From an uncultured Gammaproteobacteria bacterium (GTDB taxonomy: Bacteria > Cyanobacteriota > Vampirovibrionia > LMEP-6097): a DNA stretch of 64,000 bases. Below, one piece after another: positions 2,135 through 42,228 of this stretch. Positions within the stretch are counted from its first letter, which is position 1. Each line of letters starts with the position of its first letter. Under the pieces are notes generated by a model, which worked only from the letters and a program-made list of their open reading frames with translations, was not told the DNA's origin and did not search any database. The DNA is taken from NCBI GenBank assembly GCA_964551135.1, contig CAZKAT010000003.1, positions 1,514 through 65,513 of the forward strand, given 5' to 3'. Position numbers and translations under genes: made by a program.

Positions 2135-4513
2135 ATGAGCTTTTCCGTCAGTTCTAAATTATTATCCAAGGTTCTAGTAGAAGAAGAAAACCTAGATATC
2201 CCTTTGGTTTTGGGGAAGTTCTTAGATGAATTACAGGATAAAGTATTCTGTGAGCAAGCATTTATAATCGATAAAAACCAAGGTAAGGTTTTCACTTGCT
2301 CTAATATCAGTCCAGCAGACATAAGTTGTTCAGGACAAGGTATTGAAAAATACCTTATCGAAGACTGGGGCTACTTATATGTAGTTAAAGCTGCTAAGAA
2401 AGAAGATGCTAGGTTTTGGGATGAAGTTACTGGATCTCTGTCACTGTTCTTACATAGCGCTGAACTTAAAATTCATACTCACCTCATTAGTAATCTCACT
2501 TCTGATATAAGACGCACTCTAAGACCGGATCTAGCATTAGAGAAGATGTATCAAGCATTGAAAGAATATGCTCAATTAAGTGGTTTTTATTTCTTCAAGA
2601 AACTCATTAACACTGATGATCATGAAAATATTTTCAAAGGATATAGTCTTTATTTTAAAGCTACTCATGATGACCTTAGTAAATTTAGCGAAGAGAGAAT
2701 TTTTAACTTAGATGAGATCAAAGAATTAGGATTCATAAGTAATGATTTAGAGATAGAAGTATTCCAATCTAAGGTTAGAGGCAGAGAATGGGGTATTTTA
2801 GTTGCTACGCGCCAAGAGCCTTGGACACCGGATTTGATCGAGACTTTCGAATTATTCTCAGAGCAAATGGCAAGTGTATTTAATCAACACGAGCTACACT
2901 CAGAGAGCTTAACCATGGCACAACGAGAATTCTTGCTGAACCAGATCACCACTAAGATCAGAGAGTCATTAGTTGTCGATAAAATTATCGAAACTGCAGT
3001 CGCAGAGATAGGACAAGTAATGGGAGTAGAATCCTGCGGTATCGTAGTGCTTAATCGTAAGATCAGAGGTAGCATTGGTCACCAAACTTGGTCTATAGAA
3101 GATGATTTCTCTTCTAAGATGACAGATGCTATTTATAGTACGCTGAGAACCGAATTAGAACCCAATTGGCTAGAGCCTTCTATTCAAGCGCCACGAGGAT
3201 TTCAAGATGGTGAAGAAACAGGAACTAATGGCTGGCAATCTATATCAAGCTTAGGTTTACAATCATATCTATGTTGTGGTTTATTCAGAGACAATACTAG
3301 AGAATTAATCGGTATCCTAGCAGTAGGATTCTTCAATCAAGTACGTAACTGGACTCACGATGAACAGTTACTACTAGAGGGTGTCGCCAAACAATTAGAG
3401 ATAGCACTTATTCAAGCTTCTATCTATCAAGAAGCTCAGCAAACCAAACGCCAAATGGCACTCCTACACAGGCTTAGCAGTGATATCAGAGACAGCTTAG
3501 ATATATCTATAGTATTAGGGCAGATTGCAAGTGGCATTGGTGAAGTATTAGGACTTAACAGATGCTTCGTAAGAAGATTCTCCAATGACTCTAATGTAAT
3601 TAAGACTGAAGAAGAATATTGCTCTAAGGGCTTTGATCCAAGTGCTGATATGATGTTTAATTTCGAGCGAGAGTGGATAACTGAGCTAGCTTCAGGTGAT
3701 AGCGCGCTTAAAGCTGTGGAAGTTCTCAATATAGCTTCAGTGGCATCCAAGCTCAGTGAAGAAAGTCCAGAACTCTTAAAGATAGCTGAGGCTATTCAGC
3801 TTAAAAGTTACCTTTCTATACCCCTAGTAGCACGTGGTAAGATCCTTGGCTCAATCATAGTTCACCAGTGTGATAGAGAACGAAACTTCCTGCCCGAAGA
3901 GATAGAGTTTATATTCAGAGTTGGATCTGAAGCTGCTATCGCTATCGAGCATGCTGAGTTGTTTGATACTATAAATAAATTTAATAAGACCGATCCTGAT
4001 ACTGGACTCTATAATAAACGTTATTTTAGAGAAATAGCAATGCAAGAAATTGCTAAAGCACAAAAAAACTCCAATCCTATATCTTTCATGTTAGTCGACG
4101 TAGACTACCTTAAAGAAATCAATGATGATCCAGATCATGGTGGACACGAAGCAGGTGACGAAGCGATTCAGATACTTGCTACCGTACTCACTAACACCGT
4201 CAGGCAGACTCCTGTAGATGAAGTTAGCAAGCGCATCTCTGATGTAGTTGGAAGATTTGGTGGTGATGAGTTTATGATACTCTTGCCTAATACTCCACTA
4301 GAAGGTGCAGCCACTGTCGCCAAGCGTATTGCAGAGCACTTAGCTAAGGCTAAACATAGTACTTGGAAACGAGCTCTCACTTGCAGCATTGGGATTTCTT
4401 CTGCTCCACATGATCCTTATGACTACGAGCAACTTAAGACCCTTGCCGATAAAGCTCTCTATCTCTCTAAGCATAAGGGTAGAAATGGGTTTAGTATTAC
4501 GACTGAGTTGTAA
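2135..4513 (+). CDS. GAF-domain diguanylate cyclase (GGDEF)
   Basis: 792 aa; C-terminal RFGGDEFMILLPNT GGDEF signature; long N-terminal region consistent with tandem GAF-type sensor domains. Confidence 0.8.
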   Translation: MSFSVSSKLLSKVLVEEENLDIPLVLGKFLDELQDKVFCEQAFIIDKNQGKVFTCSNISPADISCSGQGIEKYLIEDWGYLYVVKAAKKEDARFWDEVTGSLSLFLHSAELKIHTHLISNLTSDIRRTLRPDLALEKMYQALKEYAQLSGFYFFKKLINTDDHENIFKGYSLYFKATHDDLSKFSEERIFNLDEIKELGFISNDLEIEVFQSKVRGREWGILVATRQEPWTPDLIETFELFSEQMASVFNQHELHSESLTMAQREFLLNQITTKIRESLVVDKIIETAVAEIGQVMGVESCGIVVLNRKIRGSIGHQTWSIEDDFSSKMTDAIYSTLRTELEPNWLEPSIQAPRGFQDGEETGTNGWQSISSLGLQSYLCCGLFRDNTRELIGILAVGFFNQVRNWTHDEQLLLEGVAKQLEIALIQASIYQEAQQTKRQMALLHRLSSDIRDSLDISIVLGQIASGIGEVLGLNRCFVRRFSNDSNVIKTEEEYCSKGFDPSADMMFNFEREWITELASGDSALKAVEVLNIASVASKLSEESPELLKIAEAIQLKSYLSIPLVARGKILGSIIVHQCDRERNFLPEEIEFIFRVGSEAAIAIEHAELFDTINKFNKTDPDTGLYNKRYFREIAMQEIAKAQKNSNPISFMLVDVDYLKEINDDPDHGGHEAGDEAIQILATVLTNTVRQTPVDEVSKRISDVVGRFGGDEFMILLPNTPLEGAATVAKRIAEHLAKAKHSTWKRALTCSIGISSAPHDPYDYEQLKTLADKALYLSKHKGRNGFSITTEL

Positions 4514-5093
4514 TTGGCAACCCAAAAACTCTACGGAAATAATTTAGCAGAGGTTTAATCATATTTCCTTGCTCTAATTTACTAAAACCAATAATTTCGG
4601 CTGAATTAATAGATCCTTTCGGATATTTTTTATCAGCATCACTTGCAGTTAATACTGCTGGATCTTTAATTTCGTTAACTCCATATGCCGTTGTCTCAGT
4701 ACTGGTATAATTACCAGTAATCAGAGAAATTAAAAAATTATTCCAACCTGTTACTGTCTGCTCTACTTTTGTTTTAAATTCTTGCATTACCTTAACCGTG
4801 TCATTAAAAGTAGGTCCTAACATGTGACCATCAGAGCATACCAAGATATTAGTATTATTCATTGTATCTTTTTCTTTTGCATGCAAAGCATCTAAACCTA
4901 CTCTCAATTCTTCTGGATTGTTGCATTGAATAATATTATCCTTTTCAAATATCCCTGCACCCTTACAATGTTGATTAAGACCCCAGCGACATATTGGCTC
5001 ATCATCTACAATAAAACAATAATTTTTAACAGCGCCCATATCCAAGATAATATCATCTGCGCTATAAAAAAGCAACTGTAACCATTGCCACAA
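4497..5093 (-). CDS. Hypothetical protein, 3' segment of a frame interrupted by an in-frame TAA
   Basis: 198-aa ORF in the same frame and directly contiguous with ORF 5094..5618; the track start is a TTG immediately after the TAA stop; first ATG is at codon 19. No family recognised. Confidence 0.35.
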   Translation of the reverse strand: MWQWLQLLFYSADDIILDMGAVKNYCFIVDDEPICRWGLNQHCKGAGIFEKDNIIQCNNPEELRVGLDALHAKEKDTMNNTNILVCSDGHMLGPTFNDTVKVMQEFKTKVEQTVTGWNNFLISLITGNYTSTETTAYGVNEIKDPAVLTASDADKKYPKGSINSAEIIGFSKLEQGNMIKPLLNYFRRVFGLPITTQS

Positions 5094-5618
5094 TTATTTA
5101 AATAATTCATTGCACTTAGCTAATAATTTAGGTATTGCTACATGCCAAGTGCCAACTCCTCTGAAAATCTTAAATGGGTTTAAACCATTATTTATAGGTA
5201 AAGTTTCTATACCATCAACAGAATCTGCTTTTGGGATTTTTTCTGCACTTCCAGAATGTAATACAGAGAGGTATGAGCCATTATGTTCACTACTCCATTT
5301 TTCCAAAATTGGGTTGATAGCACTTGGATATTGATTTGATATTACTAATAGTTTATTACAATCTCTTTGTTGTTCAAGAATACTAGATAATTCATTAAGA
5401 TCAGAGACCGTCTGAACATCTAAATCCTTAATACCTTGATCATTTGCACTAGATTTTAGGCTACGTTTTGTTATAGGTAGTCCAGATTTGTAATTGTCAC
5501 AATAAATAACATCAAATTTAGCCATGATATAGATAATAGCATTTGTGCTATAAAAAGAGCAAGTGTCTACAATTGCCGCCATTATTACTGCCCCGGGAAA
5601 CGCCGCTGTATCTATCAT
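5094..5618 (-). CDS. Hypothetical protein, 5' segment of a frame interrupted by an in-frame TAA
   Basis: 174-aa ORF from ATG 5618; alternative ATG at 5525 (MAKFDV...) would avoid the 56-nt antisense overlap with the mnmE start. No family recognised. Confidence 0.35.
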   Translation of the reverse strand: MIDTAAFPGAVIMAAIVDTCSFYSTNAIIYIMAKFDVIYCDNYKSGLPITKRSLKSSANDQGIKDLDVQTVSDLNELSSILEQQRDCNKLLVISNQYPSAINPILEKWSSEHNGSYLSVLHSGSAEKIPKADSVDGIETLPINNGLNPFKIFRGVGTWHVAIPKLLAKCNELFK

Positions 5619-6876
5619 TAAGATCAGTGGTGAGCAGAGCTGGGCTATAGTCTCGTCATTGCGAGGAGATGATAAATTAACTCATCGTCATATAGAAATC
5701 TCATGGATACAAGATGGCGAGAATAAAATAGATCAAGTACTAATTCTTCCTTTCAAAGCACCATATAGTTATACAGGCGAAGATCTAATAGAAATCCATT
5801 CTCATGGTGGCATGTGGATTACCGAGAGAATTTTAAAATTAATTTTAGAAGCAGGAGCTAAGCTAGCTAAGCCTGGGGAGTTCACTGAGAGAGCGTTTCT
5901 AAATCACAAGCTAGATCTATCACAAGCAGAAGCGATCTTAGATATAATTCAAGCGCGCAGCGGTAAGGCTGGCGAAAATGCAATTAAACTTTATCAAGGT
6001 TATTTAGGCAATGCGATTAAAGAGATGCGCCTAACATTACTAAATCTCTTAGGAGAACTTACTGCTTGCATAGACTTCCCAGATGAGGTTGCTGACTACG
6101 ATATAGAGAAATATCAAAAACAAATAGCTAAACAAATACAAAAGATCGAAGAATTACTTGCAGGTGAAGAAGAGGGGCATATACTACGCGAAGGTTACAA
6201 AGTAGCAATAGTAGGTAATCCAAATACTGGTAAATCTACCTTGCTCAATACTCTACTGAAAAAAGAGCGAGCAATAGTTACAGATATACCAGGGACTACT
6301 AGAGATCTAATTGAAGAATCTTATAGTATTAAGGGTCTACCACTGATTCTTCTAGATACTGCAGGAATTCGCAATAGCTCAGACCGCGTAGAACAGATCG
6401 GCATGGAACGCAGTCAGAGAGCCATAGAAGAAGCAGATCTAGTTTTAGTTCTCAAAGAAGCGCAAGACTCAAGTCCTAATACTCAAGGCTCATTATTAGA
6501 TGTAAGTTTCAAATCTAAAAATCATTTAGTGATAGGAACCAAGTTAGATTTATATTCAAATGACAATCATAATGGCTTTGATATTTGTATTTCTTCTAAG
6601 ACTGGAACTAATATAGAAGAGCTTAAGGAATTAATATACTCACGTATCATACATGGCAGTAGCCAAAATCAAGTAAAGATTAATCACAGGCAAGCTGATC
6701 TGTTGCGTAAAGCTCAAGCTGCACTAGAGCACTCTATGAGCTCAACTCACTTAGCAATAGACTTCTGGACTATAGACCTGCGCGCTGCTATCGCTGCACT
6801 CGGTGAGATTACTGGTGAGTCGTTGACAGAAGAATTACTCGACAATATCTTCTCGAGGTTTTGTATTGGGAAATAA
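5563..6876 (+). CDS. mnmE: tRNA modification GTPase MnmE (TrmE)
   Basis: 437 aa; N-terminal TIAAIITAPGNAAVSIIKISG, G-domain P-loop GNPNTGKSTLLN and DTAGIR, C-terminal CIGK tetrapeptide typical of MnmE; GTG start. Confidence 0.9.
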   Translation: MSTIAAIITAPGNAAVSIIKISGEQSWAIVSSLRGDDKLTHRHIEISWIQDGENKIDQVLILPFKAPYSYTGEDLIEIHSHGGMWITERILKLILEAGAKLAKPGEFTERAFLNHKLDLSQAEAILDIIQARSGKAGENAIKLYQGYLGNAIKEMRLTLLNLLGELTACIDFPDEVADYDIEKYQKQIAKQIQKIEELLAGEEEGHILREGYKVAIVGNPNTGKSTLLNTLLKKERAIVTDIPGTTRDLIEESYSIKGLPLILLDTAGIRNSSDRVEQIGMERSQRAIEEADLVLVLKEAQDSSPNTQGSLLDVSFKSKNHLVIGTKLDLYSNDNHNGFDICISSKTGTNIEELKELIYSRIIHGSSQNQVKINHRQADLLRKAQAALEHSMSSTHLAIDFWTIDLRAAIAALGEITGESLTEELLDNIFSRFCIGK

Positions 6877-7449
6877 TAAAGCAACTTCTCTCATAAATTT
6901 ATCTACAAATGTAGCTATTGTTGGTATTCCTTGATTTAATCCCAATACAGAAGTATTTCTCTTCCTTGCATGAAAAGCAGAAGCTCTGTCTCTTATAACT
7001 TGATCCAGAGGATCAGTAGGATTAACTTTTGGAAATAACAGTTGATTTCGTATCGCCCAATCTCCAACAGTAAAATTTGGACTAATTTTCACAATAGCAA
7101 ATCTGTCAGTAGCTTTATATAAAGTTTCAAGAAGTTTATGATAAGTCTGAGACCAATCAGCACGTCTTCCTCCTCCAGTATTTTCTACTGCTTCCTCATC
7201 AACAAAAACTAAAACTGGTGTATTTTTATCTTCTGACATATTTTGCCAAAAATTCCTATTCTCATCGAAGTAAGAAGTTTGAGTACTAGAACCTCTAGAA
7301 TAAACTACTTGATCTTGTCCTAAATTACGAATAGCATTATCAAACCAACCTGCTAATGCGGAATCAGAGAAAACAGCTATTCTCGGTGTCGCTGCTGTTG
7401 GCTTGAATTCTTTTGTTGATTCTGTTGTAATAGGTGCTGTTATAGTCAT
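6835..7449 (-). CDS. Hypothetical protein (possible SGNH/GDSL-like hydrolase fold)
   Basis: 204 aa; IAVFSDSALAG weakly resembles SGNH block I; other blocks not convincing. Convergent with mnmE, overlapping its 3' end by 42 nt. Confidence 0.3.
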   Translation of the reverse strand: MTITAPITTESTKEFKPTAATPRIAVFSDSALAGWFDNAIRNLGQDQVVYSRGSSTQTSYFDENRNFWQNMSEDKNTPVLVFVDEEAVENTGGGRRADWSQTYHKLLETLYKATDRFAIVKISPNFTVGDWAIRNQLLFPKVNPTDPLDQVIRDRASAFHARKRNTSVLGLNQGIPTIATFVDKFMREVALLFPNTKPREDIVE

Positions 7450-7485: not shown

Positions 7486-7977
7486 ATGTCTATATGTAAT
7501 AATAACTGGAAAATGAACGATAGTAAACCAGAATTCTCAATTAAAAATATCGGTGATGCCAAACTTGCAATCATAGTCGCTAGCTGGAATAAACAATTCA
7601 ACATGGAGATGTACGAATCTGGACGCGAAGTTCTTGAGAAAGCAGGAATAAAAAAAATTGATCTTTACGAAGCACCAGGTGCTTTTGAAATACCATTAAT
7701 CGCACAAAAACTTGCTGAGAGTGGTAAATATACTGGCATTATTTGTTACGGCACAGTAGTTCGCGGTGATACTAGACATTTTAAGATAGTGGCTGATGAA
7801 AGTGCACGAGGAGTAATGGATGTAATGCTAAAAACTGGCATACCTGTACTTAACGGTATACTTGCCTGCGAAAACGCTGGACAAGCGGAATTCAGAGCTT
7901 CACGCAAGAAAGAAGACAAGGGTAAGGAAGTTGCGCTTTCGGCATTAAGTTTACTTAGTACTTTAGCCTCATTATAA
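7486..7977 (+). CDS. ribH: 6,7-dimethyl-8-ribityllumazine synthase
   Basis: 163 aa; AKLAIIVASWN and APGAFEIPL motifs typical of lumazine synthase; size matches. Confidence 0.8.
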   Translation: MSICNNNWKMNDSKPEFSIKNIGDAKLAIIVASWNKQFNMEMYESGREVLEKAGIKKIDLYEAPGAFEIPLIAQKLAESGKYTGIICYGTVVRGDTRHFKIVADESARGVMDVMLKTGIPVLNGILACENAGQAEFRASRKKEDKGKEVALSALSLLSTLASL

Positions 7978-7992
7978 ATCTAGACACCTAAC

Positions 7993-9108
7993 TTACTTAG
8001 ATTTATTTGAGTTCATTAATTCTGTAAACTGCTTAAATAAATAATCACTGTCATGCGGTCCAGGAGAGGCTTCTGGGTGGTATTGAACTGAGAATATATC
8101 AGGACGATCCTTCAAACGAATACCAGCGACAGTATCATCATTAATATTCAAATGTGTTATTTCGAGGTTATCTGGTAGATTCTCCTTGCTCACTGCAAAA
8201 CCATGATTATGAGAAGCTATCTCTATATTAGTTGAATCAAGATTCTTGATAGGTTGATTAGAACCACGATGTCCAAACTTAAGCTTGAAAGTTTTCGCTC
8301 CACAAGCAAGTGCTAGAATCTGATGCCCTAAGCAAATACCAAAGATTGGTTTGCGAAATTTCTCTATCAAGGTTTTAACAGTCTCTATTGCATAAGTTAC
8401 GGCAGCTGGATCTCCAGGACCGTTACTAAGGAAAACTCCATCTGGATTAGCTTGAAGAATATAATCTGCTGGCGTAGTAGCAGGCACTACTTCTACCTCA
8501 CAACCATGAGCGAGAAGCTGATTCAGAATGTTTTGCTTAATTCCAAAATCGTAAGCAATAACTTTATAACGCGGATTGATTGATGTAGCTCCCAGAGCAG
8601 TGCTAGAAGCTTGAAACTTCTCCTTACAACTCACTGTAGAAGCTAGGTCTAGACCACTCATCACTGATGAAGCACGAATTTGTTTCAATAATTCACTATT
8701 ACTAATAGTGTCATCACTGCAGATAGCTGCCCGCATTGCACCTTTATTACGTATATGTTTGGTGATAGCTCTAGTATCTACATCATGAATAGCAATGATG
8801 CCATGTTGTTTCAAAAAATCATCTAAAGTTTCTTGTGATTTATAGTTACTTGCTACTGGGCTATAGTTCTTCATTACCATTCCTTTAGCAAAAGAACCCC
8901 TAGACTCCATGTCTTCAGAATTACAACCATAGTTACCTATCTCTGGATAAGTAAAAATTATAATCTGACCAGCATAACTAGGGTCAGTCATAATTTCCTG
9001 ATATCCTGTCATCCCTGTATTAAAAACTATCTCACCAAAACGACTTCCACGAGATCCTAAACCCTTACCTCTAAACTCTCTACCGTCTTCTAGTAATAAA
9101 CGCGCCAT
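7993..9108 (-). CDS. carA: Carbamoyl-phosphate synthase small (glutamine amidotransferase) subunit
   Basis: 371 aa; CarA N-terminal domain followed by class I glutamine amidotransferase domain with GICLGHQ catalytic cysteine motif and HPE. Confidence 0.9.
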
Positions 9109-41823: not shown

Positions 41824-42228
41824 GGGGGCGTATAGCTTTGACAGGGGTCAGAGATGGTAAAACGCGAGTCCAGGTAGCCTAGGTCCTGGTAAAGCCAAGG
41901 CAAAACATAAGTGTAAATGAATTTGAAGTAACTGTAGCGCAAGCTACACCTGCTGAGCGTTTCGCTCAAGCAGCTTAGTCCCGACATACTGCGGACACTT
42001 CCTCGCTGCTTAACGGCTAACCGGTTAGGATTGTGAGGCACTAAACAGGTCAGTGCATGAATCATACTTTGATAAGTTTAGTATGAGGAGTAAAGATCAT
42101 AAGCTTAGAACCCGTTGAGTGTCTATGCTCTTAAGCACGGCAACAGCTTAGATTTATAGACTACACTCGTAGTGGTTTATCGTTGAAAACTTTTGGACGC
42201 GAGGGGCAGTTCCTCGCCGCCTCCACCA
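41824..42228 (+). ncRNA. ssrA: tmRNA (transfer-messenger RNA), standard one-piece form
   Basis: 5' GGGGGCG pairs with 3' CGCCUCC (7-bp acceptor stem with G3:U70 alanine identity pair) followed by encoded ACCA; 5' GGGGGCGUAUAGCUUUGACAGGGG resembles the tmRNA tRNA-like domain; T-arm GCGAGG/CCUCGC; internal open frame ending ...AQATPAERFAQAA then UAG, consistent with an Ala-Ala-terminated tag. The overlapping 81-aa minus-strand ORF is considered spurious. Confidence 0.75.

Follow-up and report, generated by a model that had tools for sequence, protein, structure and literature searches.

Does the minus strand upstream of mnmE carry one gene broken by a stop codon, or two genes that merely share a reading frame? 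In the 64,000-nucleotide (nt) stretch of contig CAZKAT010000003.1 that was analysed (the window), two minus-strand open reading frames (ORFs), 5094..5618(-) of 174 amino acids (aa) and 4497..5093(-) of 198 aa, were in the same frame and had the TAA at 5094-5096 as their sole separator, adding up to 372 aa. The ORF listing and the sequence confirmed this arrangement as an earlier sequence-only reading of the stretch had described it, including the 56-nt opposite-strand overlap with mnmE (GTG at 5563) that follows from a start at ATG 5618. That reading had also offered ATG 5525 as an alternative start, which leaves a 37-bp spacer to mnmE (5526-5562), and this was right: the downstream ATG was conserved in related genomes. 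Our analysis showed that genes A and B, starting at ATG 5525 and ATG 5039, were two separate, intact genes and that nothing was broken. The overall explanation, which we consider likely, is that both genes encode receiver-like proteins, each behind its own promoter cassette and probably leaderless. Most public gene calls agreed with these limits (A, 5094-5525; B, 4497-5039), and one used a TTG at 5093. The locus should be annotated as two genes from these two ATGs, not as a pseudogene and not as the longer ORFs.

Genes A and B in related genomes

The loci of relatives were gathered using mnmE, the proteins of the family and the cassette pattern described below, and five related metagenomic genomes (L002, L003, L006, L007 and L059) had the site between mnmE and the GGDEF gene that holds A and then B in the window. 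In L006, the site contained gene A only, with 144 aa, ending in ELFKD-TAA and followed directly by the end of the GGDEF gene. L003 and L007 each had a single B-type gene (185 and 183 aa, respectively), and L059 had a single gene of 176 aa. L002 had two genes, one of 169 aa and then one of A-type with 147 aa, separated by 41 nt and hence out of frame. A fused A-B ORF was present in none of these five relatives. The sequence-only reading had itself named a comparison with orthologs, one ORF or two, as one way to decide the matter; the out-of-frame pair of L002 and the lone gene A of L006 refuted its single interrupted frame of 372 aa, and the relatives showed separate genes starting from the conserved downstream ATG.

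A putative promoter cassette in front of each gene

Each of the two ATGs was preceded by the same cassette, which consisted of TTGCTn, 17-18 nt ending in TGn, TATTAT, and 7 nt ending in a pyrimidine. In gene A, the -35 hexamer TTGCTC (5557-5562) was followed by an 18-nt spacer ending in TGC, the -10 hexamer TATTAT (5533-5538) and CTATATC (5526-5532). In gene B, the -35 hexamer TTGCTT (5070-5075) was followed by a 17-nt spacer ending in TGA, the -10 hexamer TATTAT (5047-5052) and CTTGGAT (5040-5046). The 37-bp spacer between mnmE and gene A thus equalled 6+18+6+7 nt, exactly one core promoter. The sequence-only reading had pointed out that only about 37 bp would be left for two divergent promoters; this difficulty was largely resolved for gene A, as a divergent spacer of this length can hold a complete promoter if the mRNA is leaderless. 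Among eight copies of the cassette from six genomes, column identity was 78% and TGnTATTAT was invariant, and the proteins behind these copies shared 17-40% identity. The gap between the -10 hexamer and the ATG was 7 nt in seven copies and 6 nt in L059. A pyrimidine directly preceded the conserved family ATG in seven of the eight; at the 169-aa gene of L002, a G preceded the ATG of a 5' mini-ORF.

Sigma-70 holoenzyme favours initiation 7-8 bp downstream of the -10 hexamer, at a purine preceded by a pyrimidine. Given this distance and the pyrimidine-purine step, the A of the ATG would become the +1 nucleotide, and a leaderless mRNA would result. The pattern of the cassette reads as a sigma-70 extended -10 promoter of about 37 nt before each gene, and the mRNAs of A and B are probably leaderless, with transcription starting from the A of the ATG. 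No Shine-Dalgarno sequence was found at A or B, where the predicted duplex energies were +2.2 and -3.1 kcal, respectively. Leaderless translation needs a 5'-terminal AUG and declines about 2-fold with each added nucleotide (PMC8459731), and the start codon was ATG in every family gene. Four of the ten family genes had no other in-frame start upstream, and L006 had a TAA two codons before the ATG.

The 169-aa gene of L002 appeared to be a natural leadered variant and works as a natural control. Here, at 7938-7975(-), a 26-nt insertion separated the cassette from the ATG, a GAGG Shine-Dalgarno sequence was present (duplex energy -6.9 kcal), and a 7-codon mini-ORF (MLEIAEV*) was kept at the former leaderless position. 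This arrangement resembles that of 5'-uAUG transcripts (PMC4965119).

The spacer segment TTTTTATAG (5547-5556 and 5061-5070(-); about 205-214 in L011) was conserved beyond what a sigma-70 spacer needs, including in copies without mnmE, and the plus strand of this region reads TGcTATAAA 8 nt before the GTG of mnmE. Possible roles for the segment are those of a back-to-back promoter, operator or antisense start. Both features, together with the absence of a predicted A-B terminator, which makes readthrough from A into B possible, favour a different view of the cassette as an operator, a 5' untranslated element or partly the promoter of mnmE, the genes then lying on leadered mRNAs that lack Shine-Dalgarno sequences and start further upstream. 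We consider this view unlikely. The coding sequence of mnmE, on the opposite strand, lies directly upstream of the cassette in gene A, L003, L006, L007 and L059 and leaves no room for another promoter. The -35, TG and -10 elements stand at sigma-70 spacing, with a pyrimidine and then the A of the ATG in seven of eight copies. In L011, the cassette was conserved even though the upstream neighbour was not mnmE, so its conservation serves the receiver-like gene itself. The restriction of all family genes to ATG starts is what leaderless translation requires (PMC8459731), and the -10-to-ATG geometry recurs at many genes of the window.

A generic promoter scan omitted both cassettes because TTGCTC and TATTAT fell below its scoring rule. 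Sigma-54 and sigma-28 promoters were rejected by eye, as the GG/GC spacing was unsuitable. A scan of metagenomes with the cassette pattern gave 99 loci, 98 of which were chance matches; L059 was the only one that encoded a family member. An Rfam search of 4300-5900 gave a hit to the enterobacterial small RNA STnc430 across the A/mnmE spacer (5473-5589(+)), which was judged to be chance (29.2 bits, below the gathering score of 47; E 0.038).

Leaderless-type starts across the window

A TATAAT-like box was found 6-8 nt before the start ATG in 13 of 48 window ORFs of at least 150 aa (about 27%), compared with 2% of internal ATGs. The examples include the ATGs at 9108(-) (carA), 11872(+) (pgm), 16888(-), 40327(+), 47908(+), 50849(+), 59350(-) and 60547(-); the hexamers often carried a TGn extension, and the box of carA was conserved in L002. 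A decent Shine-Dalgarno sequence was found in only about a third of the window ORFs. Leaderless-type starts thus look common in this genome, judging from its sequence, and the recurrence of the geometry gives more confidence in the leaderless reading of A and B.

Lambda cI is a familiar leaderless gene. Those of Mycobacterium tuberculosis, Deinococcus and Caulobacter likewise have a -10 box adjoining the ATG, no Shine-Dalgarno sequence and strictly ATG starts (PMC3898074, PMC4007540, PMC8459731); the cassette described here differs in having a -35 hexamer and an extended -10. Leaderless mRNAs are thought to be rare in gammaproteobacteria, with 0.7% in E. coli (PMC8459731), and the present organism bears that label. 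The frequency of leaderless-type starts is unusual for a metagenome-assembled genome labelled Gammaproteobacteria. If the 5' ends match the geometry, this gammaproteobacterial-labelled lineage would be an outlier in translation initiation.

A divergent receiver-like family

Standard domain models did not recognise the two proteins. In Pfam, A and B, their extended ORFs and nine family members gave sub-threshold noise only (DUF1177, DUF5910), and PF00072 matched none of the nine members, with E values up to 10 allowed. When PDB sequences were searched with a profile, no significant match was obtained; one receiver domain came up at E 0.86. Profile-profile comparison with a hand-made alignment of CheY, Spo0F and PhoB gave E 2e-5 for the whole family and E 1.6e-4 over 119 columns for the B-type profile, with the acidic pair (DD), the phospho-acceptor D, the T and the KP aligned. 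AlphaFold2 models were of moderate confidence, with mean predicted local distance difference test (pLDDT) scores of 66.8 for A and 59.1 for B, of which residues 1-107 were good. Both models showed the order b1-a1-b2-a2-b3-a3-b4, a long low-confidence insertion and a C-terminal helix, in agreement with the (beta-alpha)5 flavodoxin-like receiver fold.

The residues at the expected active site were then compared position by position. The acidic pair after b1 was D12 D13 in B, aligned with CheY D12 D13, and was half kept in A (D10 N11). The phospho-acceptor position was D70 in SDGHM of B, aligned to CheY D57, and N64 in SNQYP of A and its orthologs. The T position was T108-G in B and S91-G in A. 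At the Lys position, where the alignment is uncertain, B had F152 (with K154 two residues on) and A had R122; KP occurred in P0005, P0008 and P0009, and K in most other members. The models and profiles indicate that A and B are receiver-like (CheY-like) single-domain proteins, with the B-type keeping the phosphorylation-site residues. These residues are the acidic pair, the Asp and the Ser/Thr, together with Lys-Pro in most relatives; A-type members have Asn instead of the phospho-acceptor Asp.

Pseudo-receivers have been defined as receiver-type domains that lack at least one of five residues (DD, D, T, K), and as aspartate-less if the D is missing; common substitutions replace the second residue of the DD pair by Asn and the Lys by Arg (PMC12632262). 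By its residues, gene A would be an aspartate-less pseudo-receiver, although the definition starts from PF00072-recognised domains and A is not one. Like known pseudo-receivers, for example the FrzS receiver and the ShkA pseudo-receiver, it lacks the phospho-acceptor Asp, and its N11 and R122 correspond to the two common substitutions. The absence of the Asp together with these common substitutions implies a phosphorylation-independent role for gene A (PMC12632262, PMC1974792, PMC7010744). The pseudo-receivers of that definition are recognised by PF00072 and have Glu as the most frequent replacement of D, whereas gene A is unrecognised and has Asn.

The family shares with CheY, Spo0F, DivK and MrrA a stand-alone domain of about 120-180 aa with the (beta-alpha) receiver fold, and single-domain receivers work by protein-protein contacts (PMC5964349). 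B-type proteins resemble CheY in the acidic pair after b1, the Asp after b3 within S-D-G-x-M (S-D-W-N-M in CheY), the Ser/Thr plus small residue after b4 and, in most relatives, the Lys-Pro after b5. Unlike single-domain response regulators, the family has a poorly modelled insertion of 30-50 residues in place of helix a4, a family-specific NNxx(N/D)P before b5 and an LF(A/G)LP C-terminus. The locus thus contributes a receiver-like family that goes undetected by standard domain models, and its proteins are new and very divergent.

Relationship of A and B and evolution of the family

Direct BLASTP of gene A against gene B gave no match, and the homology between A-type and B-type profiles was weak (E 3.7e-4, probability 36%). 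Their relationship was drawn from these profiles, the intermediate proteins of L002 (169 aa) and L059, the LF(A/G)LP and NNxx(N/D)P motifs, and the common site and cassette. On these sequence features, A and B appear to be distant paralogs of a small, lineage-restricted family, which had eight matches among 1.84 billion representatives, one of them (P0006) a spurious repeat protein.

The family evolved quickly within a stable neighbourhood. In L002, L003 and L006, the flanking genes were 84-93% (mnmE) and 90-92% (the GAF-GAF-GGDEF gene) identical. Gene A was 73% identical to its L006 ortholog, with a ratio of nonsynonymous to synonymous substitution rates (dN/dS) of 0.26, compared with 0.05-0.07 for the flanking genes; this sequence comparison shows gene A to be under purifying selection. 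Window A shared 40% identity with the A-type protein of L002. Window B and the B-type protein of L003 were only 21% identical although the flanking genes were 91% identical, which is too low for simple orthology at such a divergence and suggests that different paralogs were retained or swapped at one site. For divergent family pairs, dN/dS was 0.6-0.76, with substitutions saturated.

These properties raise the alternative that A and B are fast-decaying orphan ORFs with no signalling role, the receiver-like fold being a remnant or a modelling artefact. The tiny size of the family, the pairwise identity of 17-40% across genomes with flanking genes 84-93% identical, the saturated dN/dS of the divergent pairs and the differing presence of the genes between relatives all speak for it. 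We hold it to be rather improbable. The single well-aligned ortholog pair had a dN/dS of 0.26, start codon, promoter and length were conserved in all members, and the active-site positions were conserved in B-type members. In addition, all relatives that were examined had kept one or more members at this site.

Why two genes resemble one interrupted frame

The segment 5081-5098 (AATAATTGTGGCAATGGT) was identical at 15 of 18 nt to AATAATGGCGGCAATTGT at 5569-5586, the antisense of mnmE codons 3-8. This relic, which lies upstream of the -35 hexamer of gene B, was collinear with the -35 hexamers, and an equal or higher score was found in only 10 of 2000 dinucleotide shuffles. The match indicates that the A-B tandem arose by segmental duplication of the mnmE 5' end and promoter, with or without the gene, a duplication that took the first mnmE codons with it. 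The TAA of gene A sits inside the relic. The cassette was open in the frame of the ATG in most of its other copies too, the open stretch reaching upstream for 52 codons (A), 36 codons (L003) and 18 codons (L007); the ORF listing therefore extends both genes upstream and gives them a fused look. With the stop inside the relic and the cassette open by chance, the two ORFs resemble one interrupted frame. Among random 54-nt stretches of the window, 35% were open in a given frame; combined with the one-in-three chance of a matching frame, about 12% of such gene pairs would be contiguous by chance. The in-frame contiguity of A and B is no more than chance would give.

Three explanations that take the single frame at face value were weighed against these data. 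A pseudogene, formed when a recent nonsense mutation disrupted a single ancestral gene of about 372 aa, would fit the in-frame contiguity of the two ORFs and the lack of a recognisable Pfam family in either half, and A and B share with nonsense-interrupted genes the appearance of two in-frame ORFs with one stop between them, and nothing else. This explanation is very improbable. Besides the absence of a fused ORF in the relatives, neither profile searching of 5.8 billion clustered proteins nor exhaustive HMMER searching of 1.84 billion representatives turned up a protein that spans both halves. A read-through concatenate of A and B also gave no protein-search match, though both proteins are present in that database, and this result was not counted as evidence. 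The two halves are complete receiver-like domains, and each has a conserved ATG and a promoter cassette to itself. Gene A is under purifying selection, and its stop was kept within one codon, as the L006 ortholog (73% aa identity) ends one codon later at a synonymous divergence (dS) of 0.71.

Programmed readthrough or recoding of the TAA, giving an A-B fusion beside A, would be favoured by the 54-nt spacer being open in frame, and is just as implausible. The frame relation was not conserved, since 41 nt lie between the two genes of L002 and each of the other relatives has a single gene; an open in-frame spacer has the chance expectation of about 12% given above, and this spacer is taken up by the conserved promoter cassette. 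No Rfam element scored above its gathering score in 4300-5900. A sequencing or assembly error at the TAA, for which nothing speaks beyond the in-frame look, has a negligible chance of being right, as 1601 nt around the TAA were 100% identical across contigs of ERZ3430527, SRR17828886 and SRR7369907, which are separate accessions, and the orthologs stop at the same place. The separate genes in relatives, the identical assemblies and the conserved stop together reject nonsense mutation, sequencing error and conserved readthrough. Among the three options listed by the sequence-only reading, two genes therefore stood, and nonsense mutation and sequencing error were discarded.

Possible function and turnover at the site

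With two intact genes established, their surroundings offered hints of a role. In seven of eight loci, the family gene was convergent with the GAF-GAF-GGDEF gene and often overlapped its 3' end. Flagellar rod genes and an HDOD gene lie near the locus, and no kinase gene adjoined genes A and B in their window neighbourhood. Single-domain receivers and pseudo-receivers are known to work by protein contacts (PMC5964349, PMC12632262, PMC1974792), and our tentative working guess, more doubtful than not, is that the family proteins modulate cyclic di-GMP (c-di-GMP) or motility signalling through protein contacts. Two points weigh against such a functional link: the synteny with the cyclase gene was missing at L010, and where present it may simply be inherited.

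A more speculative extension, which we regard as a long shot, treats the site between mnmE and the cyclase gene as a turnover locus of modules that each combine a promoter with a receiver-like gene. Hyper-divergent receiver and pseudo-receiver paralogs would be duplicated, swapped and lost there by recombination between the repeated cassettes. They would serve c-di-GMP or motility signalling as modulators or decoys that can replace one another, with selection favouring their diversification, in a gammaproteobacterial lineage with the unusual trait that a quarter or more of its genes are leaderless.

Features of the locus and neighbouring genes

Table 1. Coordinates of genes A and B and of the adjoining features in the window
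Feature	Position	Strand	Description
Gene A	5094..5525	(-)	143 codons + TAA; predicted divergent receiver-like protein without phospho-acceptor Asp
Gene B	4497..5039	(-)	180 codons + stop; predicted divergent receiver-like protein
TAA, the "interrupting" stop = stop codon of gene A	5094..5096	(-)	
Putative promoter cassette of gene A = entire mnmE-A spacer	5526..5562	(-)	
Putative promoter cassette of gene B, within the 54-nt A-B spacer	5040..5075	(-)	
Putative mnmE antisense relic	5081..5098	(-)	resembles mnmE codons 3-8
mnmE, GTG start, divergent from gene A	5563..6876	(+)	Pfam TrmE_N, MnmE_helical, MMR_HSR1
GAF-GAF-GGDEF diguanylate cyclase gene, convergent with gene B	2135..4513	(+)	Pfam domains

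The positions of the features are collected in Table 1. The N-terminus of MnmE (MSTIAAIITAPG) was kept in the relatives. The translation of the cyclase gene showed an intact GGDEF motif and RxxD I-site (RISDVVGRFGGDEF). The 3' ends of gene B and the cyclase gene overlapped by 17 nt (4497-4513), and by 20 nt in L007 and 4 nt in L059. No intrinsic terminator was predicted across 4300-5900, so convergent transcription of gene B and the cyclase gene may collide.

On the other side of mnmE, an orphan ORF of 204 aa that belongs to no Pfam family (6835-7449(-)) was convergent with mnmE and overlapped its 3' end by 42 nt. It was preceded by TATAAT, 8 nt and the ATG. This ORF evolved fast (dN/dS about 0.6 against L003). 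L002 lacked it and L059 had a PIN-like gene of 126 aa in its place, so gene content varies on that side of mnmE as well. Membership of the receiver-like family was rejected for it (E 0.61). Elsewhere in the window, a transfer-messenger RNA (tmRNA) gene at 41824-42228(+) matched RF00023 with 93.6 bits and was the only Rfam family above its gathering score.

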